From the NCBI GenBank assembly GCA_964416135.1, contig CAYQCU010000003.1:68815-132814 (forward strand): 64,000 nt of DNA. The letters are read 5' to 3'. The notes under the pieces were generated by a model that saw only the letters and a list, made by a program, of their open reading frames with translations, was not told the origin of the DNA and did no database searches. Shown one piece after another: positions 1,255 to 59,126 of this stretch; the first letter of the stretch is position 1; every line of letters starts with the position of its first letter. A program made the position numbers and the translations under genes. This stretch comes from an uncultured Bifidobacterium sp. (lineage in GTDB: Bacteria > Actinomycetota > Acidimicrobiia > Acidimicrobiales > Ilumatobacteraceae).

Positions 1255-1282
1255 GGTGTGCGAGACTCGCTCCGTGAACGAG

Positions 1283-16872: not shown

Positions 16873-17857
16873 GGTTCATTCCTTCTCTGTTGATCGATCG
16901 AGCCACCATCTCGTCCATGTGCAGCCATCTGTCGTCGAGCCAGTCGGCGAACGCACCCGATCGCTCGATCTCGTCGCGCACGAAACGCTCCACCACCACG
17001 CGGGCGCGCGGTCGCCCCTCGCGCAAGCGGGCGAGGATCCCCTTGAAGGTGTCGAGTCCGTCGAAGCCGCTGTGCCACATCAACAACACGTCTGCTCGCG
17101 GCAATGACGCCAGGAGCGCAGCGGCGCCGGCGCTCTTGGGCGGGAGCAGGTGCTTGAGCCCGGCCATGCGCTCGGCGCGTGCCGGGTTGCGGGTTGCGAG
17201 ACGGTCCAGTTCACGTCGACGTTTCGTGTCGCTGGCACGGCTTCCTTCCGGAAAGATGACCGCCACTTGTTGACCGTCGAGACCGGCGGCCATCTGCTCG
17301 ATGCCCGCGAGTTCGGCCGCGACATTCGTCGAACGTCGCTCGACGAAGTAGTTCGGGAGGCGATGACCGAATATGTCGATCGACGGCATGGTCTTCAACT
17401 CTTTCTTCAACACGTAGCGGGGCTTGAGCCCGCCAGTCGATGACAACACCCAGCAACTCATGACCGCATCACCGAGGCTGGCATGACGACACAAGGCCAC
17501 GTACGGCCCGGTACCCCAGTCACTCGGCACTTCCACCGACACGTTCAACCCGACGGTCCAGCGCAGTGCCCCCATGATGCGTGCCGTCCACCACCTCTGC
17601 AGTCCGTAGTGCGCGTCCCATCGTCCGGCCCGCCCCGTCGCCCACAGCACGACAGCGGCGACCACGGCCACCACTTCGAGCCACGCCCATGCGAGAGCGA
17701 AAGCCACCAGTCGCAGCAACGGCAGGCGAAACTGCAACCGCACGAAGTCGACGACCACGAGCAGAGGCACCCACAGAGGCAACCCGACGGTGAGCACGCC
17801 AGCCAGCGCACTGACCCCGATCACGGTCACGGGGCGTCTCATCCAGGCCCTCTGCAC
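16865..17857 (-). CDS. Lysophospholipid (1-acyl-sn-glycerol-3-phosphate) acyltransferase family protein
   Basis: HX4D motif 'CRHASLGD' and 'VIFPEGSR', with N-terminal TM helices. Confidence 0.7.
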   Translation of the reverse strand: MQRAWMRRPVTVIGVSALAGVLTVGLPLWVPLLVVVDFVRLQFRLPLLRLVAFALAWAWLEVVAVVAAVVLWATGRAGRWDAHYGLQRWWTARIMGALRWTVGLNVSVEVPSDWGTGPYVALCRHASLGDAVMSCWVLSSTGGLKPRYVLKKELKTMPSIDIFGHRLPNYFVERRSTNVAAELAGIEQMAAGLDGQQVAVIFPEGSRASDTKRRRELDRLATRNPARAERMAGLKHLLPPKSAGAAALLASLPRADVLLMWHSGFDGLDTFKGILARLREGRPRARVVVERFVRDEIERSGAFADWLDDRWLHMDEMVARSINREGMNHG

Positions 17858-17950
17858 ACTCGCACCTTAGGTCGCCCGGGAGGCCCCCGTTGGACTGGAA
17901 CCCTTGATTCTTCGGCACTTCAGGTTGACAAATCGTATAAGTTGCCTGCC

Positions 17951-26350: not shown

Positions 26351-27289
26351 GTGCCCCGACAGTCCCGTTTCGCGTTCGCCAAGCGGGTGGCACCGCTTCT
26401 CGGACTGGCGGTCGGTGTCGCCGGCCTCGCCTTCGTGGTTCGCACCCTCGTCGTGCGCTCCGACGAAGTGGCCGACGCCTTCGCGGCGATGGACGTCGTA
26501 CAACTCGCGGGAAGCGTCGGTCTCGGCCTGGCAGCGATGTGGTGGATCGGACGCAACTGGGTCGCGATGCTCACTGCGCGCGGACACAATGCACCACCGC
26601 GGCGAGCGATGAGTTGGTACTTCACGGGCCAACTCGGCAAGTACGTCCCCGGTGGCATCTGGCCGATCGTCGGTCGGGCAGAACTGGCGGTGCGCGGCGG
26701 AGTCGCACGACCCGCCGCCTACGGAGCAACGACAGCCTCGATGGCGGCCACCTACACCGCGGCAACTCTCGTCACCGGTGTCGCGTCACTCGCTGCCTGG
26801 TCGTACCCGGTGATCGGCACCGCCTTGTTGATCGGACTCGTCGCCGCCTCGGTGATCGTCTGGTCACCGCCGGTCCGCACGGCGACGATGCGCCTGGCGG
26901 CCCGCGTCGGCATCACGGTCTCGTCACTTCCCGGTCTTCGCCGGCTGGTGGCATCTGTCGCGGTGCACGTACCGGCGTGGTTGTTGGTGGCGGCATCGAC
27001 ATGGGTCACCGCGCGTGCATTCGGCGCCGACATCGGAGCCGTCGACCTGGTGTTCGCCTCGACTGCGTCGTGGCTCGCAGGCTTCGTGGTGGTCGGAGTA
27101 CCCGGAGGCATCGGGGTGAGAGAAGCCGTGTTCACCGCACTCGCTGCACCGGCGGCAGGGTCGTCGGTGGCCGTGGCCGTCGCACTGGCGAGTCGTGTCG
27201 TGTTCGTCGTGGTCGATCTCGCAGGCACCGCCCTCGCAGCGGCAGTCGCCGGCAGCGCCTCGGTGCGCGAACGCTCAGCGGAAACCTGA
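26351..27289 (+). CDS. Flippase-like membrane protein (LPG-synthase-TM/UPF0104-like)
   Basis: About 8 TM helices with 'YFTGQLGKYVPGGIWPIVGRAEL'. The 3' end overlaps the convergent FrhB-like gene by 15 nt. Confidence 0.7.
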   Translation: MPRQSRFAFAKRVAPLLGLAVGVAGLAFVVRTLVVRSDEVADAFAAMDVVQLAGSVGLGLAAMWWIGRNWVAMLTARGHNAPPRRAMSWYFTGQLGKYVPGGIWPIVGRAELAVRGGVARPAAYGATTASMAATYTAATLVTGVASLAAWSYPVIGTALLIGLVAASVIVWSPPVRTATMRLAARVGITVSSLPGLRRLVASVAVHVPAWLLVAASTWVTARAFGADIGAVDLVFASTASWLAGFVVVGVPGGIGVREAVFTALAAPAAGSSVAVAVALASRVVFVVVDLAGTALAAAVAGSASVRERSAET

Positions 27290-28630
27290 GAACCGTTCGC
27301 GCGGGATCTCCTTGCGTTGACCGGACAGACTCTTCACCCGCAGGATCCGCACCAAGAACCAGCGCACGTAGCGCATGACGTACGAACGCAACTCGAGCGT
27401 GGCCTTTCGCCACTTCATGTAGCGATAACGGCGCTGGGCCATGAGCGACTGTTTGCGCACCAGTTCGCGGTGGAACTTGGCGACCTGTCGGCGGGGCTTG
27501 AGCGTGCCGTGACCTTTGTTGGGGCCGCGCAGGTCGGGTACGTGACCGCCGAGTTCGGCGAGATGCCGGGCGTAGGCGTAGGCGAATTCGCCGAACACGA
27601 CCCTGTCGGTCTGTGATTCGCGGATCTCGTCGACTCCGACCTCGATCGACACACATGCGCCGTTCGACACGATGTCGGCGAGCACCTGCTCGGCGAAGGG
27701 CGTGCGGCAGATCACCAGACTCACCCCGGTCTTGGTGAACACCGTGCTCGGCAGCCACGCGTCACCGACGACGAAGTCGGCGAGGAAGTTCGAGTGGTTG
27801 ACGCACACGTGACAGCGTGTGGTGTTGAAGTGCCGGTCGAAGGCGACTTGGTAACCGAAGTCGACCCGACGACTGGCCGTGTGCACGGTGCCTTCGGTGG
27901 TGGTGACCGTGAGTTTTCCCACCGGTCCACCGCCCCTGTAGGAGATGTCGTCGATGGTCTCAGGGTCGTATCCGAGGTACTCACCCATCGCAGCGATGCT
28001 GTGGTGCGAATACTGCCAACCGCACAGCAGCCCGACGGTCAGTGCGACCTTGTCGCGCAACGCCGGTTCGGCGTTGCGGACCCACTGCCACATGCCCTCG
28101 AGTTGGCACGGAATACCGACCATCGCGAGACGACCGGGCGTGTCGCGCAACAACTCGAGCGCCCGTGTCTGTTTGAGGTTGTGGTAGATCGACCCCGGCA
28201 ACGAGTCGACGTCGTCTGGTTCGGTGACGAGCCGTGCGGCGAAGTCGACGCCCGCGACGTGGTCGAGAGCGATCACGCCGTCGATCTGCCCGGTGGCGAG
28301 CAAGTGCCGCAACACCTCTTTGATGAGACCCCCCGACGACGCACGAACGTTGCGTTCGTGGTCGGTGCTCTGGGCGAGATGGACCGACCGCACGGCGCCG
28401 TAGGGACCGACATCCTCGCCCGGAAAGAGCCACCTCTGGAGACCGGCGTAGTCGACCTTCACGGCCGGGCACACAGCGGCGGCCGCGGCGCCACCGGGCG
28501 ACTCGGGCTCGTAGACGAGACTCTTCGGGTTCAACGACACCCGCACCGAGCCGTCGGCCATCTCGCACGCGCCGCACCCGATGCACATGCCCGAAGAGAT
28601 GACTCCCGACAAGTCGCGATCGACGTTCAT
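27275..28630 (-). CDS. Coenzyme F420 hydrogenase/dehydrogenase beta-subunit (FrhB)-like Fe-S flavoprotein
   Basis: N-terminal ferredoxin motif 'CIGCGAC...VCPA' followed by the FrhB-like 'ASSGGLIKEVLRHLLATGQIDGVIAL'. ATGA start/stop overlap with the upstream pyruvyl transferase. Confidence 0.75.
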   Translation of the reverse strand: MNVDRDLSGVISSGMCIGCGACEMADGSVRVSLNPKSLVYEPESPGGAAAAAVCPAVKVDYAGLQRWLFPGEDVGPYGAVRSVHLAQSTDHERNVRASSGGLIKEVLRHLLATGQIDGVIALDHVAGVDFAARLVTEPDDVDSLPGSIYHNLKQTRALELLRDTPGRLAMVGIPCQLEGMWQWVRNAEPALRDKVALTVGLLCGWQYSHHSIAAMGEYLGYDPETIDDISYRGGGPVGKLTVTTTEGTVHTASRRVDFGYQVAFDRHFNTTRCHVCVNHSNFLADFVVGDAWLPSTVFTKTGVSLVICRTPFAEQVLADIVSNGACVSIEVGVDEIRESQTDRVVFGEFAYAYARHLAELGGHVPDLRGPNKGHGTLKPRRQVAKFHRELVRKQSLMAQRRYRYMKWRKATLELRSYVMRYVRWFLVRILRVKSLSGQRKEIPRERFSGFR

Positions 28631-29895
28631 GCCCGACCTCTGCCGACGACCCGGGCGATCTCGGCGAAGTTCCGCCGAGAGCGATCGCGCACCGGCGGCA
28701 ACGCGGCCTGAATCTGTCCCGAGATCTCGTCGCGACGGGCGAGCGACGCCACGACCAGTTCGACGATCGACGACGTGTTCGCAAGTTCTGCCGAATCACA
28801 CCCGAGCTCGGCCAAGCCGAAGTCTCCGAGCACCTCGCGGTACTTGTGACTCCAGCCCACCACGACCGTCGGTGTGGCGGTGGCCAGTCCAGAGATCATC
28901 GCGTGGAAACGGCTGGTCACGAGCAGTCGCGACCCCGCCACGAGGTGCCTCAATTCTCCGGCGGTGAGGTCGGCATCGACGAGCACCACCTTGTCGTCGC
29001 TGGTCAGTCGTGCCGCGATCTCCCGGCACACGGGACCGTCGTTCATGCGGCCCTCGGGTGCGCCGACGCGGTACGAGTGCGGGGCGATCACGACCGCAAG
29101 TCCGGTGCGTGTGCGCAGTTCTCTGACGAGACGAGCCATCGCACCCACGTAGTCGTGGTCGCCGGTCGATCCGTCTCGTTCGAAGAGTCTGCGCACCACT
29201 GCACTCGGCATCACCACCAGGTGGTCACCGGCGGCTTCGATCTGCCGCGTCACTGCGGCGGGCAAAGTGGCGGCCTCGTCGAGCGAGAACGCGAGATCTG
29301 CCACGTCGATGACGTTGGTGAGACCGATCGAGTCGAGATGCTCACGTGTGCGGGCACCACGTGCACAGACCGTGGCCAGACGTGGCAGCACCAGCCGCGA
29401 GAGCGTGCGGTTCGGCTGGGTGGAGAAAGGCCCGAGTGCCTGGGCGAGTTTCAACGTGGGCACACCGAGCAACAGCGGCAGCCCCGTCATCAACGCGTTG
29501 TAGACGGTGATCGGTGTCCCGCGGCCGTCAGCGAAGCTGATTCCGGCAACGTCGAGCGCCGCGTCAGAGTCGAGCAGAGCCCTGTTCGCGCGTGTGCGCA
29601 CCCAGCCACGAGGGATGCGCACCAGGGCGAGCAGGGCCGACAGCAACGCCACCGGAAACTCCACGAGTGCGAGACGCCACGGCTCGAGCCCCACCACGTC
29701 CACTCTCGCCCCGCGTGTCGGCACACGATCGGCGTCGGCCTTCGGGTAGGTGGTGAGGAGCGAGAATTCGCACGCACCGACGTGCTCAGGCGCTCTCGCA
29801 ACGACGCTCTCGACCATCGCTGCTGCCCCTTTGTTGGCGGACAGAGCCGCGCCGAGGAGCGACAGTCGCACCGGTCGGTCCATGGTGCTCGCCAC
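28627..29895 (-). CDS. Polysaccharide pyruvyl transferase family protein (CsaB/WcaK-like)
   Basis: 'NKGAAAMVES' at the N-terminus and 'LLVTSRFHAMISGLATATPTVVVGWSHKYREVL' at the C-terminus are typical of the PS_pyruv_trans family. Confidence 0.75.
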   Translation of the reverse strand: MASTMDRPVRLSLLGAALSANKGAAAMVESVVARAPEHVGACEFSLLTTYPKADADRVPTRGARVDVVGLEPWRLALVEFPVALLSALLALVRIPRGWVRTRANRALLDSDAALDVAGISFADGRGTPITVYNALMTGLPLLLGVPTLKLAQALGPFSTQPNRTLSRLVLPRLATVCARGARTREHLDSIGLTNVIDVADLAFSLDEAATLPAAVTRQIEAAGDHLVVMPSAVVRRLFERDGSTGDHDYVGAMARLVRELRTRTGLAVVIAPHSYRVGAPEGRMNDGPVCREIAARLTSDDKVVLVDADLTAGELRHLVAGSRLLVTSRFHAMISGLATATPTVVVGWSHKYREVLGDFGLAELGCDSAELANTSSIVELVVASLARRDEISGQIQAALPPVRDRSRRNFAEIARVVGRGRA

Positions 29896-29896
29896 T

Positions 29897-30802
29897 TCAG
29901 GAGGGAGGAACCGTCGACGAAGGCTTCGTGGCCCGCACCACGAGGTCGGCCAGCAGACCGACGGTGATCACCTGCAGCGATGCGAAGAAGATCAACAGCG
30001 TGTTGGCGGCGAGACGGAAGTCGCGTTCGGCCCAGTCGAAACCGAGCTTCACGAAGCCGAGCAGCAACAGCGTCAGGCCGATCGGCAGGAAGACCTTCAG
30101 CGGGTTGTACGACAGCGTCATGCGGATGACCTGGAGGATGTAGCGCCGCGTGTCACGCAACCAGTGGAACTTCGACCGGCCGGCACGCGGGAAGTACTCG
30201 ATCGGCTTGAATCCGATGGAGTAGCCGCCACCGAGGAACGACATGGTGAGAGTGGTCACGCACGAGAAACCCTTCGGCAACTCGTGCACGTACTGCATCG
30301 CGACGTCACGACGGAATGCACGCAGACCCGAGTTCAGGTCCTTGATGTCGGTCTCGGAGAGGTACGAGGCGAGTTTGCGAATGAGCCACTTGGCGGGCGT
30401 GCGCAGCAACTTGTGCGTTCCCTCCTCGGTCTGGCGCCATCCCACGACGTGGTCCCATCCCTGCATGGCGTCGACCAGTTCGGGGATCTCGTCGTTCGGA
30501 TAGGTCATGTCGACGTCGGTCCACACCACCACCCGACCCCGGGCGGCAGTGGTCCCCGTGCGGCGGGCGGCACCGCTGCCCTGGTTGCGGCGGTGCGTGA
30601 TGAGGGTGATCCCCGGGATGTGCTGCAACTCGGCCTCTGAGCCGTCGTTCGAGCCGTCGTCGACGACGATGATCTCGAATGAGTACTTCGAGGCGGTCAA
30701 AGCGGCGGCGATGCGGTCGATCTCGGCGCGAAGGTGTCCCTTCTCGTTGTAGATCGGGAGCACCACGCTCACGTCACAGGTGTCGGGTTCGTAAGTTCTC
30801 AT
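29897..30802 (-). CDS. GT2 glycosyltransferase, polyprenyl-phosphate hexose synthase type (GtrB/ArnC/Ppm1-like)
   Basis: 'VSVVLPIYNEKGHL', 'IIVVDDGSNDGS' and the DXD motif 'WTDVDMTYP', with two C-terminal TM helices. Confidence 0.9.
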   Translation of the reverse strand: MRTYEPDTCDVSVVLPIYNEKGHLRAEIDRIAAALTASKYSFEIIVVDDGSNDGSEAELQHIPGITLITHRRNQGSGAARRTGTTAARGRVVVWTDVDMTYPNDEIPELVDAMQGWDHVVGWRQTEEGTHKLLRTPAKWLIRKLASYLSETDIKDLNSGLRAFRRDVAMQYVHELPKGFSCVTTLTMSFLGGGYSIGFKPIEYFPRAGRSKFHWLRDTRRYILQVIRMTLSYNPLKVFLPIGLTLLLLGFVKLGFDWAERDFRLAANTLLIFFASLQVITVGLLADLVVRATKPSSTVPPS

Positions 30803-30828
30803 GTCGTCTCAGGGCTTCGCAACGGCTG

Positions 30829-32658
30829 TCAGCAACCGGTCGCACCGACCCTTCTGAACAGTACCCGGTCGTGTACCGGCTCCTCTGACACCTGCTCCCA
30901 CTGGCCGTCGCGCGGCGGGCTGCCGCGCCATCCGTAGACACACCTGTAGTCGCCGGAGACGGTGGCGCCTTCACTCGAGATGTCGAATCGGTCGAGAAGC
31001 ACGGGGTGGATCTTCTGACGAATGAAGTAGTACGCACGATCGTTGCGTGCGCCCTGGGCGAAGCCGATGCGCACCGGATCGCCTGCGAGGGCAACCTCGA
31101 AACTTGCGCCCGTCTCGGCGAAAATGGCCGCCTTCGGACGTTCGAGCACGCTCCGTTGGCCTGACACCACCGCGCTCACCGCGAGCAGCAGCACCATGAG
31201 CACCGGCGCCACTGCCCCTCTCCGCGCAGAGACGAACCACAACAGCAGCCCGACCGCCATGAACAACAGTCCGAAACTGACCAGACCCGGGCTGACGACG
31301 TACTGCGCGGCATCGACTCCGACGATGTTCGGGAACACGATGTTCTCGCGACTGAAGTGCCAACGACCCTTGAGGGCGTCACCACCGTCGGCGACCACGT
31401 AGACACCGGCGACGAAGAGAATGCCGAGCGCCGAGACCAACCACAGTCGTTGCGCCACACGGAACGTCTGCTCGAGCGCCACCAACGCGACGACCCACAG
31501 GGTGGGCACGAGTAGTTCTGCATACCGGCCGTAGATGAGGTGGTCGCCACGGCTGCCGTAGAGAAGCTGGAGTCCACCGGTGAAGATCAACGCCACGGTG
31601 CACGCGACCACCACGGTGAGTGCAAGACGGGCCGGGTCGCGTCGCAGCGGAGCGTCGCCCCCGCCCGGCCGCGCACGCCACAGAGACCACAACACCGCCA
31701 CCCCGGCGAGACCGAACGACGTGGCGAGCAGATACCACGACTGGCCAGTCATCGTGCGCAGCAACGCCGGCCACGTGTCGATGTCAAACAACCGACGCAA
31801 GAGCCTGTTCTCCTGGTCGTACGACGCCGCGTAGACCGAGTCTTTGACGAATTTGTTGAGCAGATACGACACCGCATATCCGCACGCGGCGACACCGACC
31901 GCGCCGATCGCGAGAATGCGCGACATGTCGCGCCTCCACCCCCACCACACCAACACCAGACACACGATGGGAAGCATCAAGGTGAATCGACCGTGCAATG
32001 CCGGCAACAGGCCCGCATAGGCACCGAGTCCCAGCACTGTCACCGGCGACAGCGACCGCGCGGCGACGATCACGAACCAGATGAGCCCGAGGAATGCGAG
32101 TCGCGCCAGAGTCTCGGGCCACGAAAACATCGCCGACACCACGGTGCCCGGTGCCACGAACACGAGGAGACCCGCCAAGTTCCCCGTCGAACGAGACGCT
32201 CCAAAGCCCCGAACGGCAAGGTGCCGGGCAACCAGACCCACGAGCAGCGCCACGATCATGTTCACGACGAGAGCGAAGCGGTACGCACCGCCGATCGACC
32301 CGGTGACGAGAGACCCGAGTCCCGTCACCACGCCGTATCCCGCCGGGTAGAAGCTCCCGGTCGGCACCTGGGCTTCGACATGGCCGATCAACACCTGACC
32401 GTTGGTGAGAAAACCGAACTCGTCGGGGTGGATGGTCGGGCCACTCAGGCGAAGCGCCACCGACACCATGAACACACCGCACACTGCGGCCGCCACTGTC
32501 GCGACGGCAATGAGGCGACTCGACGGCGTCGCGCTGTCGGCGTCGTGGACGAAATCGTCACCACGCTTCAGGATTCGTGCCACCGGAGCGAGAACCCTGC
32601 TGATCACCTGGTCAACCCTAGTGATCTCGGTGCACCGCCCCCGGTACACCGAGACCAC
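30829..32658 (-). CDS. Large polytopic membrane protein, GT-C-like glycosyltransferase candidate
   Basis: About 12-14 hydrophobic helices followed by a soluble C-terminal domain of about 110 aa. It sits next to a polyprenyl-P-sugar synthase, the classic GT2 plus GT-C pairing. GTG 32658 directly abuts the upstream stop; the true start may lie further downstream. Confidence 0.6.
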   Translation of the reverse strand: MVSVYRGRCTEITRVDQVISRVLAPVARILKRGDDFVHDADSATPSSRLIAVATVAAAVCGVFMVSVALRLSGPTIHPDEFGFLTNGQVLIGHVEAQVPTGSFYPAGYGVVTGLGSLVTGSIGGAYRFALVVNMIVALLVGLVARHLAVRGFGASRSTGNLAGLLVFVAPGTVVSAMFSWPETLARLAFLGLIWFVIVAARSLSPVTVLGLGAYAGLLPALHGRFTLMLPIVCLVLVWWGWRRDMSRILAIGAVGVAACGYAVSYLLNKFVKDSVYAASYDQENRLLRRLFDIDTWPALLRTMTGQSWYLLATSFGLAGVAVLWSLWRARPGGGDAPLRRDPARLALTVVVACTVALIFTGGLQLLYGSRGDHLIYGRYAELLVPTLWVVALVALEQTFRVAQRLWLVSALGILFVAGVYVVADGGDALKGRWHFSRENIVFPNIVGVDAAQYVVSPGLVSFGLLFMAVGLLLWFVSARRGAVAPVLMVLLLAVSAVVSGQRSVLERPKAAIFAETGASFEVALAGDPVRIGFAQGARNDRAYYFIRQKIHPVLLDRFDISSEGATVSGDYRCVYGWRGSPPRDGQWEQVSEEPVHDRVLFRRVGATGC

Positions 32659-34062
32659 TCAGAGATATCCGGGAAGCGAGACGCGGCTCATGTCACCACC
32701 GGCGAAGACACCGCCGTCGACCGGCAGGTGAGCGACATCGAGAAGTCGCAACGCATCGCCGGAGGTGATGCCGTCGCGCACCATCGCCGCGGCGTGTTCG
32801 GCGACTGCCGCATTGAACAGACGACGCACGTCGCGGGCGTTTCCGAAGGCTTCGTGACGTGGCCAGTTGGCCACGATCTCGGCGGCCGCGGCGCGCGACT
32901 CGGCAGTGAGCAGATAATCGTGCTCTGCGACCATGCCCTCGAACACCGCCAGAAGCTCGTGGTCTTCGAAGTCGGGAAAGTCGAGAGTGTGGTCGAACCT
33001 GCTCGCGAGCCCCGGGTTCTGACGCAGGAACTCGCTCATCTCGCCCGGGTACCCGGCCACCACGATTGCGATCTCGCCACGGTTGTTCTCCATGTAGGCA
33101 AGGATCGTCTCGATGGCCTCGGCGCCGTAGTCGTTGCGGTGATCTGAGTTCAACGTGTACGCCTCGTCGATGAACAGCACTCCACCCTTGGCCGTGTCGA
33201 GCACTTCGCGAGTCTTGAGTGCGGTCTGCCCGACGTACCCGGCCACGAGACCGGAGCGATCGACCTCCACCACGTGACCGGTGCTCAACAGGCCGAGTTC
33301 TTTGTAGAGGCGTCCGACGAGTCGCGCCACGGTGGTCTTACCCGTACCTGGGTTGCCCGTGAAGACCAGGTGCGGCGACGGAGTCACCGCACGCAGTCCC
33401 GCCCTCTGGCGGTGCTGTGCCACTTGCTGCACTGCCGTCAACTGACGAACAAGGCGCTTCACCGGCGCGAGACCGATCAGTGCGTCGAGTTCGGCCAGCA
33501 CCGCATCGGTACCGGTTGCGGCCGGAGCGGTGACCCTGATCGACGACGGGGTGCTGAACCTTTCGGAGTCGAACTTGTCACTGCGGCGCGAACTGGCCGC
33601 GACCCCGGCACCTTCTTCTTCGGCGGACGCCTCGCCACCCGCGTCACGCAGTTTCTCGGCCCACTTCTCGACGACATGGTCGATCGAACCGATGGCCTGC
33701 TCGATCTCGGCCTCGGTCACCTCCTCGGCCAGGAACGAGTGCGTGGCGAACACCTGGAGCCGGCGAGCACCGACGCGTTCGGTACGGGTCTGCACGAACG
33801 GCATCCACCCGGTGCGGGTGGCCAACCACCGAAGCACCTCGTCGGTCTCGTCGAATTCGCCCACTTCGGCGTCGATGCGCAAAACCACGGTGTCGTTGAA
33901 GCGCTCGTAGAGCTTCGCAGTGCACACCACCATGTTCTCGTGGGTCATGAACTCGACCGGGAACCCGACGTAGTCGGTGTCGTCGTCGCCCGAGAGCACC
34001 ATCGCATGTTTGGCGATGAACCCGGCGATCTTTTGTTCGAGCTCGAGCATGCTGACTGTCAT
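32659..34062 (-). CDS. AAA+ ATPase of SpoVK/CbxX/EccA type with YbjN-like N-terminal domain
   Basis: AAGGAGG RBS before ATG 34062. Walker A 'GNPGTGKTT', Walker B 'VLFIDEAY', 'IVVAGYPGEM' and 'ASRFDHTLDFPDF'. The N-terminal 130 aa resemble a YbjN/T3SS-chaperone-like fold (low confidence). Confidence 0.85.
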   Translation of the reverse strand: MTVSMLELEQKIAGFIAKHAMVLSGDDDTDYVGFPVEFMTHENMVVCTAKLYERFNDTVVLRIDAEVGEFDETDEVLRWLATRTGWMPFVQTRTERVGARRLQVFATHSFLAEEVTEAEIEQAIGSIDHVVEKWAEKLRDAGGEASAEEEGAGVAASSRRSDKFDSERFSTPSSIRVTAPAATGTDAVLAELDALIGLAPVKRLVRQLTAVQQVAQHRQRAGLRAVTPSPHLVFTGNPGTGKTTVARLVGRLYKELGLLSTGHVVEVDRSGLVAGYVGQTALKTREVLDTAKGGVLFIDEAYTLNSDHRNDYGAEAIETILAYMENNRGEIAIVVAGYPGEMSEFLRQNPGLASRFDHTLDFPDFEDHELLAVFEGMVAEHDYLLTAESRAAAAEIVANWPRHEAFGNARDVRRLFNAAVAEHAAAMVRDGITSGDALRLLDVAHLPVDGGVFAGGDMSRVSLPGYL

Positions 34063-35567
34063 TCGGCCTCCTTGCCGTTCACGGGAGCGGAATGCCACGT
34101 ACCGGCATGCCATTCGTTGTCGAGGAAATCGTTGAAGCGCCGGTTCCACGGGTCGTAGAGGGGCCACTCGGCCGACACCCAGTGGTGTGCTGTGGCGTGG
34201 TCGACCCCGTTGGTGCGCATGTACCACGCACGCAGCGCGAGTGTTGTGCGGCTCGCACCGCCATGACAGTGCACCAGTACCTCGCGACCGTCGGCGAGGA
34301 ACGCATCGATGGTGTCGACCACGTCGAGCACCGCGGAGTGCAGACTCGGGTTGTGGTCACCATGATCGTCGATCAAGTACACCTGGCGACGCAACGCGCG
34401 GTCGTCGAGTCGACCCTCGGTGTGGCACATTGACACGACAGCCAAGTGCGCTGGCGCATCCTCGGCACCGCCGAGATTCGCCGCCCACACTCCCGCTGGG
34501 TGCAACTTGCCGAACTTGCGGTGCGCCTGCGGCGGGTTCGGTTTCGAGACACCGAGACCGAGCAGCACACGACCGAGATCGACCAGGTCTTGCGAGGTGT
34601 AGTGACGACGACCCGTCGGCGAGTCGACCGTTCCGTGCACGTATGTCGACCAGCGCGAGGGAATGGCTTGGAAACCGAACCTGGCACCGGCCATGACACC
34701 TGCGATCGCAGCCACCGTGTCGGTGTCACCGCCCAGGTCGACGGCGGCCACGATCGCATCGTGGAACGAGTCGGCGTGGCGCACAGCCCACAATGCCTGT
34801 GCCGTGGCGGTACGTGCCGAGCCGTTGGACGGCCCGTCGTCGGTCTCGGGCGACCACGACTCGTCGAGCGCCGGAGCCAACTGGGTTGCGAAGACATCTG
34901 CGAACCGCGTGGACGGCATCATCTCGGTCGCATCGTGCACGGCAGCCGCGAAGTCGCCGTGAACCACCGTGGCACGCGCCACCTCGGCGACGAACACGGC
35001 CGCCGCGGCCGCTACCTGATCGAAGTGAGTGAGCGCGGCCTGCGCTGCTGCCAGTTCGACCGTGGCATCGCGGCCGAGCCGCACCCCACACACCGCCACC
35101 GGCGCAATGCGCATGACTGCTCCGTTCGACCCGCTGCGTCCACCTGTCTTGTCGTGAGCGATCTTTGCGGCACCTTCGTGCGATTCGTTCGACAACGCAT
35201 AACGCGTGGTGATGCCGACATCGACTGCACCCTTGGCCCACACGGTGAAATGGCGCCACACGACGGCGGGATCGAAACCACCGGCCTCGACGAGCGCGGC
35301 CGCCAGCGCCAGTGCCATCTGTGTGTCGTCGGTGAATTCACCGGGAGCCCACCCGAAACCACCGCCACCCACCATTTCGCCGACACCTGACAGCACCGGT
35401 CGGGGGAACTCGTCGGAGTACATGCCCGGGTCGCCGAATTCGAACGGTCCGCCGAGAGCATCGCCCACGGCTGATCCGATGATGATGCCGATCGCTCGGT
35501 CGCGCTGGGCCCTGGTGAGCCCGCGGGTGAGTGCTGCAATGTGGTCTGAGATGGGTCGTGGGGTCAT
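34059..35567 (-). CDS. ADP-ribosylglycohydrolase (ARH/DraG family) fused to C-terminal Cys-based (dual-specificity/PTP-like) phosphatase domain
   Basis: AGGAGA RBS before ATG 35567. ARH motifs 'GSAVGDALGGPFEF', 'FTDDTQMAL', 'GSNGAVMRIAP' and 'LGGDTDTVAAIAGVMAGA'. The C-terminal 'VLVHCHGGASRTT' is an HCX5R(S/T) P-loop. Confidence 0.8.
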   Translation of the reverse strand: MTPRPISDHIAALTRGLTRAQRDRAIGIIIGSAVGDALGGPFEFGDPGMYSDEFPRPVLSGVGEMVGGGGFGWAPGEFTDDTQMALALAAALVEAGGFDPAVVWRHFTVWAKGAVDVGITTRYALSNESHEGAAKIAHDKTGGRSGSNGAVMRIAPVAVCGVRLGRDATVELAAAQAALTHFDQVAAAAAVFVAEVARATVVHGDFAAAVHDATEMMPSTRFADVFATQLAPALDESWSPETDDGPSNGSARTATAQALWAVRHADSFHDAIVAAVDLGGDTDTVAAIAGVMAGARFGFQAIPSRWSTYVHGTVDSPTGRRHYTSQDLVDLGRVLLGLGVSKPNPPQAHRKFGKLHPAGVWAANLGGAEDAPAHLAVVSMCHTEGRLDDRALRRQVYLIDDHGDHNPSLHSAVLDVVDTIDAFLADGREVLVHCHGGASRTTLALRAWYMRTNGVDHATAHHWVSAEWPLYDPWNRRFNDFLDNEWHAGTWHSAPVNGKEAE

Positions 35568-35610
35568 GTATCTCCTGTTCTCGACCGGAGCATCCGGCCG
35601 CTCGTGCACA

Positions 35611-35670
35611 GTTGTACCAAGCCGGTGTCTCACCGTTTCGGGTACAACAGACCAGTATACATTCCTGTAT
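35611..35670. promoter_or_regulatory. Two inverted repeats in the divergent ARH-phosphatase / Nudix-regulator spacer (candidate operators)
   Basis: GTTGTACC (35611-35618) pairs with GGTACAAC (35641-35648). ATACA-ttcc-TGTAT spans 35657-35670. Both lie in a locally AT-rich 194-bp intergenic region. Confidence 0.4.
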
Positions 35671-35761
35671 TTTTGACCTTCTCGAGCGTCCTCAGACCAG
35701 AAGTGACGAAAAATGTGGGGAAATAGATGTGTTTTCGTCCCGAATCTGACAGGATTTGCCC

Positions 35762-36517
35762 ATGACCCCCACACGTCGCACCGTCCAGAAGGACTTCTAC
35801 GTCTACGTCGACACCGTCGTCTTCACGATCAACCAAGCCCGCTCGCTCGCCGCCAAAGATCGTCTCGAGGTTCTCGTGATGCGCCGTCCGGGCACCGCCA
35901 AGGGCCGGTGGGCACTCCCGGGGGGCCTCGTGGGCGACAGCGAGCGCTTCGAAGAGACAGCCGTCCGCAAGGTCGCCGAAGAGACGGGCATTCGCCTCAA
36001 CCGACGCGACCTGCTCCAGGTACGCGCGTACGGCGACCCCGACCGGGACTCGCGCTGGCGTGCGTTCTCGATCGCCTACCTGGCGTTGTTGCCGCACCCA
36101 GGAGCACTGCGACCCGACCAGCACTCCGAACATGCCGAGTTCGTGCGTTTCGTCGACCTGCAGCCCAAGGGCGTACTCGAGTTCGACCACGCCAAGATCA
36201 TCGACGATGCGAGACGACTGGCAACCAAGATGCTCGAAGACACGAGCGTCGCGATCGGATTCTGCAGGCCGAAGTTCACGATCAGCGAACTCCGTGGTGT
36301 CTACGAAGCCTTCCTGCAGTCGGAAGTCGACCCGGCGAACTTCAGACGCAAGGTGGAGAAGGTTCCCGGTTTCGTGGAACCGCTCGAGGAGTACGCCGAC
36401 TTCGGTTCCTCCCCCGGACGACCGGCACAGATGTACAGAGCCGGTCGCGGGCTACGTTCGAGCAACAGCCTCGAAGTTCCGATCAGATTCAGACTCTCGT
36501 CGGGCAAGACCAAGTAG
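35762..36517 (+). CDS. Nudix hydrolase domain + C-terminal winged-helix protein (NrtR-like ADP-ribose-responsive regulator architecture)
   Basis: The Nudix box 'GGLVGDSERFEETAVRKVAEETGI' is nearly canonical, with RE changed to RK. The C-terminal part 'FTISELRGVYEAFLQSEVDPANFRRKVEKVPGFVEPL' resembles the NrtR wHTH domain. Confidence 0.75.
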   Translation: MTPTRRTVQKDFYVYVDTVVFTINQARSLAAKDRLEVLVMRRPGTAKGRWALPGGLVGDSERFEETAVRKVAEETGIRLNRRDLLQVRAYGDPDRDSRWRAFSIAYLALLPHPGALRPDQHSEHAEFVRFVDLQPKGVLEFDHAKIIDDARRLATKMLEDTSVAIGFCRPKFTISELRGVYEAFLQSEVDPANFRRKVEKVPGFVEPLEEYADFGSSPGRPAQMYRAGRGLRSSNSLEVPIRFRLSSGKTK

Positions 36518-41228: not shown

Positions 41229-41301
41229 GATGACCCCCGACTGACCCTCGTCGTACGATGTGACACGACGCACGAAAACTAGTGCGGTGGGGGTGTACGA
41301 A

Positions 41302-43068
41302 ATGGCGAACCGTCTTGCGCGTGTGGCGATCGTCCTGGCAGCAGTGATGTCGAGTGCAATTGTCGCACAGGTCGCGAGCGGGTCGACCGAGTTCGACGAC
41401 AATCAAGTACCGCTCGGAGATCATGCCGAGTCCGGCAGCCTTCACCTCTTCAGTGATGATTCATTGGAAGACGAACGCGTCGACCCACCGTCGATGTTGA
41501 CCATTGCGCAGACTTTCGTTCCTGGCCAGCCGTTCTGTTCGGGCCCCACCGACCCCGGCTGCGCCGGAAGGAGCATGTGGTTTGTCGCGCACTTGCCTGT
41601 GTGCACGACGACAACCGAGGTCGACTGCATCGACTCGGTCTCGGCTGCGACAGCAACCGGGAACACTGAAGGCACCTTCGACCGGTACTACCCCGACACC
41701 GGTCCACACAGCTACACCGGTGACCCGTCTCTTGCACTCCCCACCGGACGAGCACCCAGTGTGTGGAAGATTCCCGGCGCTCCGCACGTTGGAGGCGACA
41801 TGTACATGGTGGTTGCACGACTCCGTGGATCGACTGCCCGTCGCGCAGCCGCCACCTTCCAGATTGTCCTGACACCGGTGTCGTTCAAGGCTGACGCTGA
41901 TCCGCGTCCGGAATACGAAATGGCGAAGTGGGCGGAGCCAGGGCGCATCACCGGTCCGGCCTACGACCGCGGTCGGTTTCGCTGTGCTTACTGGGGAGAG
42001 TCGGGCTCGTGCATGCTCGGCCGATCATTTCCCGCCGACACCCGCTTCACCGTCAAAGTTCGTCTGCACACCGAGCCGGCCGGTTGGTTGCACGGTCGGA
42101 TCAACGAGCCGTCGATCACGTTCACCAAGAACGGCAGTACCACTGAGGTCACCGTGAGCGCGGCCCCGGTGCAAGTGCCCGCATTCCAGGTCGCCCAGCA
42201 ACACTCGGCGTACTCAGAGAACTTACGGACTGCGTTCGGACCGAACGGCCCGTACGGACGAGGCGGCTCTCGTCAACCGGGGGGCCAAGACCTGACCGAC
42301 CTCACCCGACGCAATGCCGAGTACGGATTCAAGTCGTACGCAGACGAGGCGTTCGCCCAGTTGGCCCTGGTCAAGGATCTGATCGACGACAAAGCCGACT
42401 ACGCGCCATGGATCTGGCGAGTTCGCACTCTCGAAGACGTCGAAATGAACAAGGCCGGCAAGTGCCTCACCGATGGCTCGGGCGTGAAGGGAATCGTCAC
42501 GACGAACGCCATGATCTACGGCAGTGGACCTCCGGCATTCAATGCAGAGACCAAGAGCATCGACTACAAGGTCGCCGCACCGCACTACACCCGCACTGGT
42601 GACGTGTTCAGGGGTGCGTACCACCTGCACATGCGATCTGACGTGGCGCGCTGCTTCTACGGGTTCACCGATGCCCCGGTGACCGGACTGGTCTCGGTGG
42701 TCGAAGAAGACGGAGACACGGGGACAGCCGTCACGAACGTGCGCGAGACTGACGGGTGGTTGAAGGTCGCCGCCACCGGTTTCACCCACTCGGCACCGAC
42801 GGTCAAGGTGGCTCTCAGCCAACGTGTCGCGACCGCCAAGGTGAGGCGCAACCGGGCAGTGTCCGGCGCCGCACTCGCGCGAGCCGCGAGGTTGACCGTT
42901 CCACGGGGCGCAAAGGTGAGTGTTTCGGTGTCGACGCGACATCGCAAAGTGTGCAGAGTCGTGAAGACCTCGGTACAAGGCCTGAAGAAGGGCAAGTGCA
43001 CCGCCACGGTGACTGTCTCGTCGAAAGGTAAGAAATCGAAGCGAACGGTGACGATCACAGTCACGTGA
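41302..43068 (+). CDS. Secreted protein of unknown function (~588 aa)
   Basis: Signal peptide 'MANRLARVAIVLAAVMSSAIVAQVASG'. It has several Cys pairs and a Lys/Arg-rich beta-like C-terminal tail. I recognise no domain. Confidence 0.6.
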   Translation: MANRLARVAIVLAAVMSSAIVAQVASGSTEFDDNQVPLGDHAESGSLHLFSDDSLEDERVDPPSMLTIAQTFVPGQPFCSGPTDPGCAGRSMWFVAHLPVCTTTTEVDCIDSVSAATATGNTEGTFDRYYPDTGPHSYTGDPSLALPTGRAPSVWKIPGAPHVGGDMYMVVARLRGSTARRAAATFQIVLTPVSFKADADPRPEYEMAKWAEPGRITGPAYDRGRFRCAYWGESGSCMLGRSFPADTRFTVKVRLHTEPAGWLHGRINEPSITFTKNGSTTEVTVSAAPVQVPAFQVAQQHSAYSENLRTAFGPNGPYGRGGSRQPGGQDLTDLTRRNAEYGFKSYADEAFAQLALVKDLIDDKADYAPWIWRVRTLEDVEMNKAGKCLTDGSGVKGIVTTNAMIYGSGPPAFNAETKSIDYKVAAPHYTRTGDVFRGAYHLHMRSDVARCFYGFTDAPVTGLVSVVEEDGDTGTAVTNVRETDGWLKVAATGFTHSAPTVKVALSQRVATAKVRRNRAVSGAALARAARLTVPRGAKVSVSVSTRHRKVCRVVKTSVQGLKKGKCTATVTVSSKGKKSKRTVTITVT

Positions 43069-43119
43069 GAGTGAGACCGACCCGTACCGTGCTCTGCTCA
43101 CAGCGTGAAGGAGCACTCA

Positions 43120-43602
43120 ATGAGCCGACTCAAAGACCACATCACCGCAGAGCACTCGCATCTGAGACCACACGTGGAGGCCATACGAACGGCAGCCGAT
43201 GCCGTCGGCGAGGTGCCGAACCATGTCCTGCGCGACCTCACCGAATCGGCCGTGGGATTCCTCCTGCACGAACTGATTCCGCATGCGCACAGCGAGAACG
43301 AGATCCTCTACCGGGCGTTCGAACAGTCGCTCCACGCACCCGGCGCCGCGCGCACCATGCAACATGAACACACCGAGATCGCCCGTTACACCGACGAACT
43401 CACGTCACTGAACGCCGCCATCACCGACGGTCACGACCTGGGCGAACACACGATCCGCGAACTGCGCCGCGTTCTCTACGGTCTCTACGCACTGGTGATG
43501 TCTCACTTCGCCAAGGAAGACCACGTTCTCGCATCGATTCTCGAGGCCAAGATGCCGGCTGGGGAACTCGACCAACTGCTCTCAGATCTCACTCGGCACT
43601 GA
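43120..43602 (+). CDS. Hemerythrin (HHE cation-binding) domain protein
   Basis: GAAGGAG RBS 5 nt before ATG 43120. Spaced His/Glu ligand motifs 'HITAEH', 'HAHSENEILY', 'MQHEHTEI' and 'MSHFAKEDHVL'. Confidence 0.7.
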   Translation: MSRLKDHITAEHSHLRPHVEAIRTAADAVGEVPNHVLRDLTESAVGFLLHELIPHAHSENEILYRAFEQSLHAPGAARTMQHEHTEIARYTDELTSLNAAITDGHDLGEHTIRELRRVLYGLYALVMSHFAKEDHVLASILEAKMPAGELDQLLSDLTRH

Positions 43603-43658
43603 CCCAACGAAATCGACTCGACGGAGTCGACACGGCGTCTCTCCCCGAGAACTGCCTG

Positions 43659-44327
43659 TCACGTCGCGTCATCGAGGAGTTGGTATGCCTGGCCGACTTT
43701 CTCCGCCCATGTGGTGACATCGAAGTCCAGGTCGCTCACCGACGTGCCGAATGTCCCCCACTGCATGACGATGACCATCTCGCCTTTGCTGACGACGCTC
43801 ACGCGCCCCACGGATGCGAACTTGTCATCGCTGTCCGACGGGGGAAGCGTGGCGACAGACCAATGGACCGAGGAATCGCCGATCTCTGGTCCGTCGACGT
43901 TCTCGAACGTGTTCGACGTTCCGAACTGATCCGACCACTCGGAGCCGGCGCACGCGGCGGCTGCACCGACGATGACCTCGGCGAAGTCTGCCGCATCCGC
44001 ACTGCTCCATGCCTGCAGTCGGACAGCGGCCGAGCCGTCCTTCTTCTGGAATTCGACGTCGGCACCCGACTGACCGGCGAGGCTCTCGAGTTCTGCGACG
44101 TCGACCTCGGCGGCCGGACAGAACACCCCCGCATCGAGCACCGGATTCTCGACCTCTCGCTGGTCGAACACGTCGCGTTGCGTCTCCTGCCAGTCGGTTC
44201 CCATGTCGGTGACCGTCAGCAACGCATCGCCGATCTCCGTCGGGGTCAGCGCGTCGTTCGAAGTCCGGCAACCACCGACGAGCAGTGCTGCGGTGATGAC
44301 AACCGAGGATGTCTTCGTGCATCGCAT
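43659..44327 (-). CDS. Lipoprotein, unknown function (possibly PknH-like extracellular sensor fold)
   Basis: Lipobox 'AALLVGGC' after 'MRCTKTSSVVIT', and two further Cys residues. The fold suggestion is tentative. Confidence 0.6.
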   Translation of the reverse strand: MRCTKTSSVVITAALLVGGCRTSNDALTPTEIGDALLTVTDMGTDWQETQRDVFDQREVENPVLDAGVFCPAAEVDVAELESLAGQSGADVEFQKKDGSAAVRLQAWSSADAADFAEVIVGAAAACAGSEWSDQFGTSNTFENVDGPEIGDSSVHWSVATLPPSDSDDKFASVGRVSVVSKGEMVIVMQWGTFGTSVSDLDFDVTTWAEKVGQAYQLLDDAT

Positions 44328-44515
44328 CTCGCCATCGAAGCGGAGCGTGGGTGTTCGAGCCCGGGCGATGTGTACCTCTTCGGGTACGCAGTTGTTCGCC
44401 CCGCAACAGACAGGAGTCACTCGCGCCCCATCTAGATACCGAGTCGTCTCCGGAGGTGTGAACTCCGGCTCTTACGGCCTATCCATGGCATTCCCCAACG
44501 ACCAAGGAGGCACAC

Positions 44516-44911
44516 ATGACAAGCAGACCCACACGGCGGCGAGTCGCCAAGAAAGTTGCAACAGCGATGTTCGGGCTGGTGGCGATTCCCCTCGCTGTCG
44601 CAGCCTACGACGCACTCACTGTCGAAAACCCGATCATGCCAGCCGTCGGCGAAACCGCCGTCGGTGCATGCGACTCAGACGGTGTGACCACTTCGTACAC
44701 CTACGGAACGACGAGGAACAACGGTGTCAAGATCACTGCCGTGACCATCACTGGAATCGCAGCGGCATGCACCAACGGCACGTTCAGTTTCATGAACGGC
44801 ACGACCGAAGTCGCCGCCTACACCGGCCAGGTCGCGTCGGGGGCGCTGACACTTGCCACCAACGTCTGGACCAACGACTTCACCTCCGTCAGGGTCGCCC
44901 TCTATCCCTGA
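44516..44911 (+). CDS. Small (131 aa) N-terminally anchored/secreted Thr/Gly-rich protein, unknown function
   Basis: Strong RBS AAGGAGG before ATG 44516. The basic N-terminus plus TM 'RRRVAKKVATAMFGLVAIPLAVAAY' is followed by a beta-rich region with two Cys residues. Confidence 0.6.
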   Translation: MTSRPTRRRVAKKVATAMFGLVAIPLAVAAYDALTVENPIMPAVGETAVGACDSDGVTTSYTYGTTRNNGVKITAVTITGIAAACTNGTFSFMNGTTEVAAYTGQVASGALTLATNVWTNDFTSVRVALYP

Positions 44912-44976
44912 GCAGCGACGGCAATGAGCACTAGTGTCAGTCATCGGGATTCGGCCCGACCCAGATTCGGAGGTTC

Positions 44977-45621
44977 GTGGCAGTGATCAGACTTTTCGCC
45001 GCGACAGCAGCGACCGAACGCCTCTCGGCACTGGTTGACGACCTGAAGTCGCACCCCCAGGTGGAGGTCATCGGAAAGGCGCACACCGGACGCGACACGT
45101 TCGAGGCTGTTCGCACCCAGAACTTTGATGCGCTCGTCATGTCCGAGCATCTCTCCGACGTCGCACGGGCATTGCGACTCTCGGGGGCCCTGCCGGAAGA
45201 AGTTCCGCCGGCACTCGTCGCCGCTTCCGAATCGCCCACCCCGGCGGCGATCGTGAGGTCGCTCGCCTACGGCTTCGACAGCATCTTGCCGGTACGAGAC
45301 GACTCCAACGCGGTCGTCAAGAGGCTGACGGAGATCGTCGATGGACGTCATCGCCTGGCTGAGGACTCGATCGTCGCCGATCTCGGAGTTCCTCATGCTC
45401 TTCTGGCCCGCACACTCGTCGTCGACGAGATGATCGACGGCCAGATCGCCGACCTGGTCGGGGCAGGTCTCGACGATCACAACATCGCACTGGTGACCTC
45501 CCGTTCCATCCAGGAAATTCGCAACCGAATCGAAGGTCTCCTGGTCACGAACGACCTCGCGACTCGCACACATCTCGCCGTGGTGAGAGCCGCACAGATC
45601 GTCGTGCCCGATCTTGCGTGA
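44977..45621 (+). CDS. LuxR/GerE-family regulator with pseudo-receiver domain
   Basis: GTG start. C-terminal HTH 'LDDHNIALVTSRSIQEIRNRIEGLLVTNDLATRTHLAVV'. The N-domain has 'RLFAATAAT' where the DD pocket is expected and 'FDALVMSEH' where the phospho-Asp is expected. It is a paralogue of 11074..11700. Confidence 0.7.
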   Translation: MAVIRLFAATAATERLSALVDDLKSHPQVEVIGKAHTGRDTFEAVRTQNFDALVMSEHLSDVARALRLSGALPEEVPPALVAASESPTPAAIVRSLAYGFDSILPVRDDSNAVVKRLTEIVDGRHRLAEDSIVADLGVPHALLARTLVVDEMIDGQIADLVGAGLDDHNIALVTSRSIQEIRNRIEGLLVTNDLATRTHLAVVRAAQIVVPDLA

Positions 45622-59123: not shown

Positions 59124-59126
59124 GAC

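Follow-up and report, generated by a model that had tools for sequence, protein, structure and literature searches.

The window analyzed here, a stretch of 64,000 nucleotides (64 kb) on contig CAYQCU010000003.1 (positions 68,815 to 132,814 of the forward strand; assembly GCA_964416135.1) from an uncultured actinobacterium of the family Ilumatobacteraceae, contains three adjacent genes that code for an ADP-ribosylglycohydrolase (ARH) domain fused to a dual-specificity phosphatase (DSP) domain (hereinafter ARH-DSP), an AAA+ ATPase, and a divergently oriented Nudix regulator with a winged helix-turn-helix (wHTH) domain. The three genes are a functional unit and the finding is real; judged from its sequence, this module is a lineage-specific variant of a computationally predicted ADP-ribose-reversal system and not a system of an undescribed kind. 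More specifically, we lean toward placing it as an Ilumatobacteraceae-type member of the "ARG-centric" ADP-ribose-reversal systems that were predicted computationally by Iyer, Burroughs, Anantharaman and Aravind in 2022 (PMC9503650; Viruses 14:1977, section 3.8, Fig. 7). It has one apparently new feature, namely the AAA+ ATPase with an N-terminal domain of the YbjN/type III secretion system (T3SS) chaperone fold (the "TY-chaperone" fold), which is the sole element of the module that we did not find described.

A sequence-only reading of this DNA had proposed three open reading frames (ORFs), with the four ARH family motifs intact, an ATGA overlap between the stop of the hydrolase gene and the start of the ATPase gene, a 194-bp AT-rich spacer upstream of the hydrolase, and a shared ADP-ribose theme linking the genes functionally. 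All of the coordinates were confirmed (Table 1) and each of the quoted motifs is present at the expected residue. The overlap lies at 34059-34062, with the reverse complement ending in ...GCCGAATGACAGTC, and the spacer has a GC content of 51%, lower than the 64.4% of the window as a whole. Pfam matches and synteny support the assignment of domains, the shared ADP-ribose theme and a functional link between the genes.

Table 1. Coordinates of the module, its domains and its candidate cis elements in the window, with the additional gene of sister loci
Feature	Position	Strand	Details
ARH-DSP fusion protein: DraG/Tri1-like ADP-ribosylhydrolase with C-terminal Cys-based dual-specificity-phosphatase domain	34059..35567	-	502 aa
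ARH (ADP-ribosylglycohydrolase) domain	34653..35489	-	aa 27-305; Pfam PF03747 ADP_ribosyl_GH, E 2e-60
DSP/PTP-fold phosphatase domain	34110..34505	-	~aa 355-486; P-loop HCHGGASRT, C434 and R440; candidate general acid D400
AAA+ ATPase ORF	32659-34062	-	467 aa
ATPase N-terminal domain, YbjN/type-III-secretion-chaperone (TY-chaperone) fold	33607..34062	-	~aa 1-152; AlphaFold2 and Foldseek
CbbX/SpoVK/EccA-type AAA+ module	32737..33495	-	~aa 190-442; Pfam AAA and AAA_lid_6
Nudix-wHTH ORF, NrtR-family one-component regulator (Nudix sensor and NrtR winged helix)	35762..36517	+	251 aa
Divergent promoter/operator region between regulator gene and ARH-DSP operon	35568..35761	.	194 bp
Candidate operator CGTCCCGAATCTGACA, 16-nt imperfect palindrome TGWC-N8-GWCA	35736..35751	+	10 nt upstream of regulator ATG
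Perfect 8-nt inverted repeat GTTGTACC-N22-GGTACAAC	35611..35648	.	44-81 nt upstream of ARH-DSP start
Extra vWA-type gene of sister loci	L083:4863-5534 (example)	-	L005, L006, L009, L011, L013, L015, L030, L054, L083-L087, L095-L098, L101, L102

The ADP-Ribosylglycohydrolase-Phosphatase Fusion

The nearest solved structures to the ARH domain are those of DraG (the dinitrogenase reductase-activating glycohydrolase; 2woc, E 8e-31) and Tri1 (the immunity hydrolase against the ADP-ribosyltransferase (ART) toxin Tre1; 6dre, E 5e-29), with which it shares the ARH fold and all the aligned metal-binding and catalytic residues. Across 16 homologues, E43, T79, D80, D81, D116, D281 and D283 are invariant and T284 is nearly so, and these conserved residues align with the EF, TDDT, VDVG and GGDADT segments of DraG. 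With scores of 134.3 against a cut-off of 337 for the NCBIfam DraG equivalog and 132.7 against 490 for that of Tri1, the protein falls far below both thresholds and is thus a relative rather than an orthologue of these enzymes. It further differs from them in its setting, the locus being devoid of any DraT, nitrogenase or Tre1 context, and in carrying the fused DSP domain. In Tri1 there is a precedent for protection by an ARH from an ART with which it is not genetically paired.

The C-terminal domain, when searched in isolation, is recovered by Pfam DSPc (35.4 bits with a cut-off of 33.5) along with weaker matches to Tc-R-P and PTP-SAK, and its AlphaFold2 (AF2) model (pLDDT 90.8) displays a classical dual-specificity-phosphatase fold. 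Foldseek searches with this model yield 205 PDB matches at E<=1e-3, with target-normalised TM-scores (TMt) of up to 0.78; the top 50 are nearly all DUSPs (DUSP1, MKP5, DUSP22, DUSP28), and a baculovirus RNA 5'-phosphatase is also found among the matches. The H, C, G, G, S, R and T of the HCxGGxSRT loop, together with an upstream Asp, are invariant in 31 homologues. The earlier identification of an ARH fused to a C-terminal HCX5R phosphatase is hence borne out by the Pfam match, the DUSP fold and the invariant motif alike. The same two domains are combined in at least 120 full-length homologues; in a phage collection we found ARH-only homologues, with no ARH-DSP fusion among them.

A TY-Chaperone-Fold Domain Fused to a CbbX-Like AAA+ ATPase

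The AAA+ module of the ATPase is characterized by a Walker A motif (GNPGTGKT), a pore-loop-like GYVGQT, a Walker B motif (VLFIDEAY) and the arginine of an SRF motif. The C-terminal 280 residues of the ATPase match CbbX (3syk, E 1e-59) and EccA1 (9lur, E 8e-47), and the scores for the NCBIfam equivalogs CbbX, SpoVK and EccA are all below their cut-offs (268 vs 423, 244 vs 459 and 207 vs 467). CbbX, the red-type Rubisco activase, and EccA, the AAA+ protein of type VII secretion, belong to the same AAA+ clade as the ATPase, with which they have the lid domain, the Walker motifs and an aromatic pore loop in common, and both remodel or hand over specific protein clients. In contrast to EccA, the N-terminus of which is formed by TPR repeats, and CbbX, which has no such domain, the ATPase has an N-terminal domain of the TY-chaperone fold, and neither a Rubisco (CbbX) nor an ESX (EccA) context is present at its locus.

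This N-terminal domain had been described in the sequence-only reading as YbjN-like, a designation with almost no support from sequence comparison: the Pfam TY-Chap1 profile reaches only an E-value of 0.026, 2 of 28 homologues match it at E<=0.1, a PDB sequence-profile search gave 0 matches, and a word-indexed sequence search gave 5. The structural evidence, on the other hand, is consistent. With the AF2 model of the domain (pLDDT 83) as the query, the top 26 PDB matches of Foldseek are all members of the YbjN family (2plg, 5fr7, 6vu7, 4h5b) or T3SS chaperones (SycH, VecA, ExsC, SycT, SycE), with probabilities of ~1 and TMt of 0.45-0.68; hence, the designation is right at the level of the fold. 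The family defined by the domain is narrow, comprising 34 clusters among 1.84 billion representatives in an exhaustive profile search, and nearly all its full-length members are 446-498 aa long, which is the length of the AAA+ fusion.

The Nudix Regulator and Candidate cis Elements

Pfam matches to NUDIX (E 2e-17) and NrtR_WHD (E 1e-13), together with full-length alignments to the solved structures of AraR (5bs6, E 3e-21), 2fml and the Shewanella NrtR (3gz5, E 1e-15), confirm the NrtR architecture (Nudix and winged helix) that had been read from the sequence of the divergent protein. Its Nudix box takes the form G-x5-E-x7-RKVAEETGI, in which the canonical RE is changed to RK. This change is kept clade-wide, with the EE pair being degraded further in two loci (L003 and L011), and the canonical box is retained in more distant relatives (L059, L019). 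Such a clade-wide substitution fits a ligand sensor rather than an enzyme.

An alignment of 11 orthologous spacers shows conserved blocks, and a box related to the candidate operator (Table 1) is found ~10-25 nt 5' of the Nudix start in the aligned syntenic loci. Its half-sites covary, taking the form GTCC..TGAC in some loci and GACC..TGTC in others. The box occurs once in the window at <=3 mismatches, a single match being no more than expected by chance. Judged from its sequence, the perfect inverted repeat upstream of the ARH-DSP start may serve as a 5'-leader hairpin or as a second operator; the closest relative, L003, retains part of it (GTACC..GGTAC), and it was not seen in the more distant spacers. 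Another inverted repeat, GACGAAAA-N19-TTTTCGTC (35705-35739), was dropped as a functional part, as it is not conserved in L003. A scan for consensus promoters and terminators was uninformative.

Gene Neighborhoods and Phyletic Patterns

The module was compared across ~29 non-identical related loci drawn from genomes and metagenomes, with GC contents of 51-69%. Synteny was judged from tblastn, as a simple gene caller based on GC3 overlooked or over-extended part of the genes in these loci. The typical order begins with an acyl-CoA dehydrogenase gene, followed by an optional vWA-type gene and the Nudix regulator, which is divergent from ARH-DSP; the latter is succeeded in its own direction by the optional AAA+ gene and by genes for a membrane protein, a GT2 glycosyltransferase and a pyruvyl transferase. 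In every syntenic locus in which that side of the contig is visible, the Nudix and ARH-DSP genes occur as a divergent pair at an unchanged chromosomal site. The expectation of a syntenic trio holds for this pair in every related locus examined and fails for the AAA+ gene, which is not obligate, four loci being without it. In a metagenome scan seeded with the ATPase N-terminal domain, 17 loci were recovered, and ARH-DSP directly precedes the AAA+ gene wherever the upstream sequence is visible. Relative to the window, the module proteins have median identities of 53-63%, as against 85-89% for the acyl-CoA dehydrogenase and GT2.

In 17 sister loci, the vWA-type gene is found next to the regulator, downstream of and co-directional with the Nudix gene, and codes for a protein of 223-259 aa with weak matches to vWA (E 3e-4, 2e-3). 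It is absent from the window, where only 39 nt lie between the stop codons of the Nudix (36517) and acyl-CoA dehydrogenase (36557) genes. We considered and rejected the proposition that the AAA+ and vWA genes compensate for each other ("never both absent"): 0 of ~23 loci lack both, but chance alone would give ~1.4 such loci, and it was by their AAA+ gene that the metagenome loci had been ascertained, so that no claim of compensation is made.

Beyond this clade, the Nudix and ARH-DSP pair recurs non-syntenically in Geodermatophilus and Modestobacter (L037, L063) and in two loci from metagenome-assembled genomes (MAGs; L059, L019), and the ARH-DSP fusion is sporadic in other actinobacteria, where it is found in changing contexts. 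Its distant orthologues (~42-46% identity) adjoin ARPP-1 and HD phosphatase genes, which are markers of the ARG-centric systems. In Geodermatophilus tzadiensis (L037), the Nudix-WHD gene is divergent from an ARPP-1 gene (E 7e-59) that is followed by ARH-DSP, and L043 and L059 have an HD_4 gene next to the fusion. In L025, ARH-DSP, the TY-AAA+ gene and ARPP-1 (E 2e-72) occur within 6 kb of each other despite unrelated surrounding genes. The order in this locus, from a Lake Mendota Acidimicrobiales MAG (L025:11166-15597), is ARH-DSP, an ECF-sigma-like gene, a gene for a 247-aa protein of unknown affinities, TY-AAA+, an RNase_T-BRCT exonuclease and ARPP-1, and represents a different and richer version of the system than that of the window.

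Relationship to Previously Predicted Systems

The combination of genes had been presented in the sequence-only reading as undescribed, a claim that does not stand: Rodionov et al. in 2008 (PMC2330246) had already linked nrtR to draG, predicting the nrtR1-draG regulon of Streptomyces to function in "reversible protein ADP-ribosylation", and Iyer et al. in 2022 predicted the same architecture. Classically, NrtR proteins control NAD metabolism, with ADP-ribose as their effector, and their operator is a 21-bp palindrome with a GT-N7-AC core upstream of the target genes (PMC2330246). When compared with the Streptomyces nrtR1-draG-SCO1765 locus and the divergons of nrtR2 with nrtX-nrtY, the module of the window likewise has a regulator with Nudix and winged-helix domains that adjoins and is divergent from an ADP-ribosylglycohydrolase gene, with an imperfectly palindromic box in the spacer. 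It differs in the spacing of that box (TGWC-N8-GWCA, as against the GT-N7-AC core), in the phosphatase domain of the hydrolase, and in the score of the regulator for the NCBIfam NtrR equivalog (80 bits vs a cut-off of 400). The unexplained nrtR2 divergons with nrtX-nrtY in Kineococcus, Frankia, Proteus and Hahella, as given in Table 1 of PMC2330246, share the layout of the Nudix, ARPP-1 and ARH-DSP genes of L037; by analogy with that table, the two may be the same system.

The ARG-centric systems (PMC9503650) are built around an ARG without a linked ART or sirtuin. More than 42% of them have a one-component regulator with a Nudix or WYL sensor and an HTH, and ~55% have a phosphatase, typically one of the rhodanese-phosphatase superfamily (Cys PTP/DSP), which is encoded as a fusion to the ARG or next to it. 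Their chaperone partner is a peptide-binding vWA, SseB or TY-Chap1-3 domain, the last of the T3SS/YbjN fold, and their variable extras (ARPP, Macro, NADAR, REase, and HD or other phosphatases) are optional. Two Pfam families, ARPP-1 and TY-Chap1, are named after the system. The window has in common with these systems the ARH/ARG core with its conserved residues, a Nudix-HTH one-component regulator divergent from the ARG gene, and a Cys phosphatase of the PTP/DSP type fused to the ARG. The chaperone is represented by the YbjN/T3SS-fold N-terminal domain of the ATPase, the vWA gene being present in sister loci only, and AAA+ and vWA differ in their presence among close relatives of the window, as do accessories of the ARG-centric systems. 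None of ARPP, Macro, NADAR, REase or HD is found in the window; ARPP-1 or HD_4 genes lie beside the orthologues in L037, L025, L043 and L059. No ART, sirtuin, DarT or macro domain was detected in Pfam scans of the called genes of the 64 kb, a few short or doubtful ORFs lying outside these scans; within this scope, the earlier statement that the window lacks an ADP-ribosyltransferase holds, and the absence of a linked ART or sirtuin is itself a feature shared with the ARG-centric systems.

The window departs from the published systems in the fusion of the chaperone-fold domain to a CbbX-type AAA+ module, and the term AAA+ has 0 occurrences in the running text of PMC9503650, as distinct from its Fig. 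7 and supplement. It also differs from an obviously mobile system in being vertically stable in one acidimicrobial clade. The sequence-only reading had named placement in an already characterized pathway as a finding that would speak against it. The module does match a published system; however, as that system is predicted and not characterized, the objection carries only half its force.

Functional Predictions and Alternatives

Under the model proposed by Iyer et al., the Nudix-controlled operon is derepressed by ADP-ribose once this is released, and then reverses ADP-ribosylation by viral enzymes; these authors also suggested that the phosphatase processes the released ADP-ribose (PMC9503650). 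Along these lines, the regulator of the window would repress the divergon via the conserved palindrome-like box beside its own start. Proteins ADP-ribosylated by an unlinked enzyme, whether an endogenous ART or one from a phage or toxin, would be processed with the release of ADP-ribose or a phosphorylated derivative, and this ligand would bind the Nudix domain and lift the repression. Once induced, the ARH domain would strip arginine-linked ADP-ribose, and the DSP domain would remove a phosphate from either the ribose or ADP-ribose so released or the target protein itself. The chaperone-AAA+ protein may recognize a peptide segment of the modified substrate and remodel or present it with ATP, and in sister genomes the vWA protein beside the regulator may replace or join the AAA+ in this client role.

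Several observations weigh against this placement. Four syntenic loci (L005, L006, L015, L030) lack the AAA+ gene. The module is not uniquely fast-evolving, the neighboring membrane protein and pyruvyl transferase having median identities to the window of 50% and 64.5%. PADLOC 2.0, applied to the membrane protein and the three module proteins, gave nothing specific: ARH-DSP had no match, and the AAA+ had only generic AAA matches to IetA and TRIP13 (E 1e-5 to 1e-9). AraR, the best solved relative of the regulator, binds arabinose and not ADP-ribose, and the TGWC-N8-GWCA box misfits the published NrtR core. The modelled fold of the DSP domain resembles the protein-directed DUSPs, such that its substrate could be a protein. 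In the literature searched, we found no experimental study of any part of an ARG-centric system. Further, the module has the same GC content as its flanks, which is not like a mobile defence island, and its site is fixed between core genes in genomes of 51-69% GC.

These last points bear on an alternative that we regard as possible without being probable, namely that the module is a housekeeping eraser of endogenous regulatory ADP-ribosylation, akin to DraT/DraG or the Streptomyces locus, which would, under stress or upon nutrient shifts, reset host proteins that are ADP-ribosylated and perhaps phosphorylated as well, with the writer ART encoded elsewhere in the genome and no anti-phage or anti-toxin role. 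The position of the module, which in all related genomes across that range of GC is fixed, with acyl-CoA dehydrogenase on one side and glycan-synthesis genes on the other, the native composition, the lack of any mobile-element genes found near the module and the missing PADLOC match favor such a resident, vertically inherited function. To these may be added that DraG is the closest solved relative and that "reversible protein ADP-ribosylation" is the function to which nrtR1-draG was assigned (PMC2330246). Conversely, no ART was found within 64 kb, and the accessories (vWA and AAA+ here, ARPP or HD elsewhere) vary among close relatives. The gain and loss of modules among close relatives, along with rapid evolution, is read as the signature of a conflict system (PMC9503650), and these variable accessories, together with the sporadic fusion and its shifting contexts in other actinobacteria, favor the conflict reading.

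The nature of the partners bears on whether the substrate is a protein at all. It is improbable, in our estimate, that ARH and DSP act together to break down a soluble derivative of ADP-ribose (for instance O-acetyl-ADP-ribose, ADP-ribose-1''-phosphate, 2'-phospho-ADP-ribose or a cyclic ADP-ribose signal), with the regulator tying this activity to NAD/ADP-ribose homeostasis. A fused phosphatase and glycohydrolase would suit a phosphorylated sugar-nucleotide substrate, and the weak PTP-SAK matches, the baculovirus RNA 5'-phosphatase among the Foldseek matches, the classical role of NrtR proteins in NAD metabolism with ADP-ribose as effector (PMC2330246) and the suggestion that the phosphatase acts on released ADP-ribose (PMC9503650) all accord with it. 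However, the tightly coupled partners, i.e., the TY-chaperone-AAA+ protein with its pore loop and the vWA protein of sister loci, are protein-binding or remodelling modules, and DraG and Tri1, to which the ARH is closest, are protein-arginine hydrolases. Among the called genes of the window, Pfam scans found none for NAD biosynthesis or salvage. The ATP-dependent chaperone-AAA+ partner points to protein clients rather than small molecules. A cell-envelope function, in which ARH-DSP and AAA+ would belong to the downstream operon (the 609-aa membrane protein, GT2, pyruvyl transferase and an FrhB-like protein), with a ribosyl- or phosphoribosyl-lipid or glycan intermediate as the substrate, appears highly improbable. 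The AAA+ stop does abut the GTG of the membrane-protein ORF (TGA directly followed by GTG, at 32659/32658), and the AAA+, membrane protein, GT2 and pyruvyl transferase genes are co-linear on one strand in most related loci. Yet the alignments of the membrane protein start 30-66 residues into its ORF, making a real intergenic gap likely; in three loci (L083, L087, L088), an RPE65 gene intervenes between AAA+ and the membrane protein; and the fusions in L025, the Geodermatophilaceae and Kineococcus are without such neighbors, those in L025, L037 and L043 being accompanied by ARPP-1, an HD phosphatase or a Nudix regulator.

Returning to the ARG-centric placement, the ATPase invites a bolder proposal, which we put forward tentatively and consider rather doubtful. 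The combination of the TY fold with a CbbX-like AAA+ module might constitute a dedicated ATP-driven partner of an eraser of post-translational modifications, which seizes ADP-ribosylated and perhaps phosphorylated clients by a peptide segment and threads or remodels them such that ARH-DSP can strip both marks. The module would then be a vertically inherited housekeeping repair machine of freshwater Acidimicrobiia, partly interchangeable with a vWA chaperone, and not a mobile defence island. In the literature searched, no AAA+ remodeller coupled to de-ADP-ribosylation has been described.

Other Genes in the Window and Sister Loci

Downstream of the module, a conserved envelope-glycan block on the minus strand (27275-32658) comprises the 609-aa multi-pass membrane protein, which has no Pfam match, the GT2, a polysaccharide pyruvyl transferase and an FrhB/FdhB-like protein; the GT2 is ~89% identical across the clade and the membrane protein ~50%. 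The membrane-protein, GT2 and pyruvyl-transferase genes were considered as part of the module and rejected, given the RPE65 insertion in the three loci named above and the absence of the block from distant loci. As RPE65 separates the AAA+ gene from that of the membrane protein, the envelope genes are neighbors and not members of the module. The RPE65-type carotenoid oxygenase is encoded at L083:9479-10849 (also in L087 and L088), and the window has a copy at 45949-47310(+), ~12 kb away.

A separate pair of a MoxR-type AAA+ (AAA_5) and a VWA_CoxE protein (E 4e-45) is encoded at 57681-60041 on the minus strand, next to MurJ, ProB and Obg, and is unrelated to the module. Two genes code for kinase-like proteins of the EcKL/APH family (1256-2401(+) and 53754-54812(-)), the latter directly adjoining an AMP-binding acyl-CoA-synthetase-like gene, with such genes also being found in the region of the former. 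The cluster at 41260-45621 contains genes without family assignment, coding for proteins of 602 aa (with an N-terminal hydrophobic stretch), 253 aa, 131 aa and 214 aa, alongside a hemerythrin-domain protein (43105-43602). Finally, an aldehyde-oxidase/xanthine-dehydrogenase-type ORF (17483-20542(+); Fer2_2 and MoCoBD) has a His/Pro/Gln-rich N-terminal extension of ~155 aa from its first start codon; it is probably over-extended, with the real start likely near residue 157.

Biological Implications

The practical value of the window itself is limited, its host being known from metagenomes only, and culturable Geodermatophilaceae and Kineococcus carry orthologues that are better suited to experiments. 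If the ARG-centric placement is true, modules of this kind would undo ADP-ribosylation by enzymes that are not encoded alongside them, such as phage ARTs of the Alt/Mod type and interbacterial toxins. A response that is switched on only when ADP-ribose appears would be a plausible immune or repair logic, and the locus described here shows that, in one abundant lineage of freshwater actinobacteria, the core pair of such a module is a stable fixture of the chromosome.

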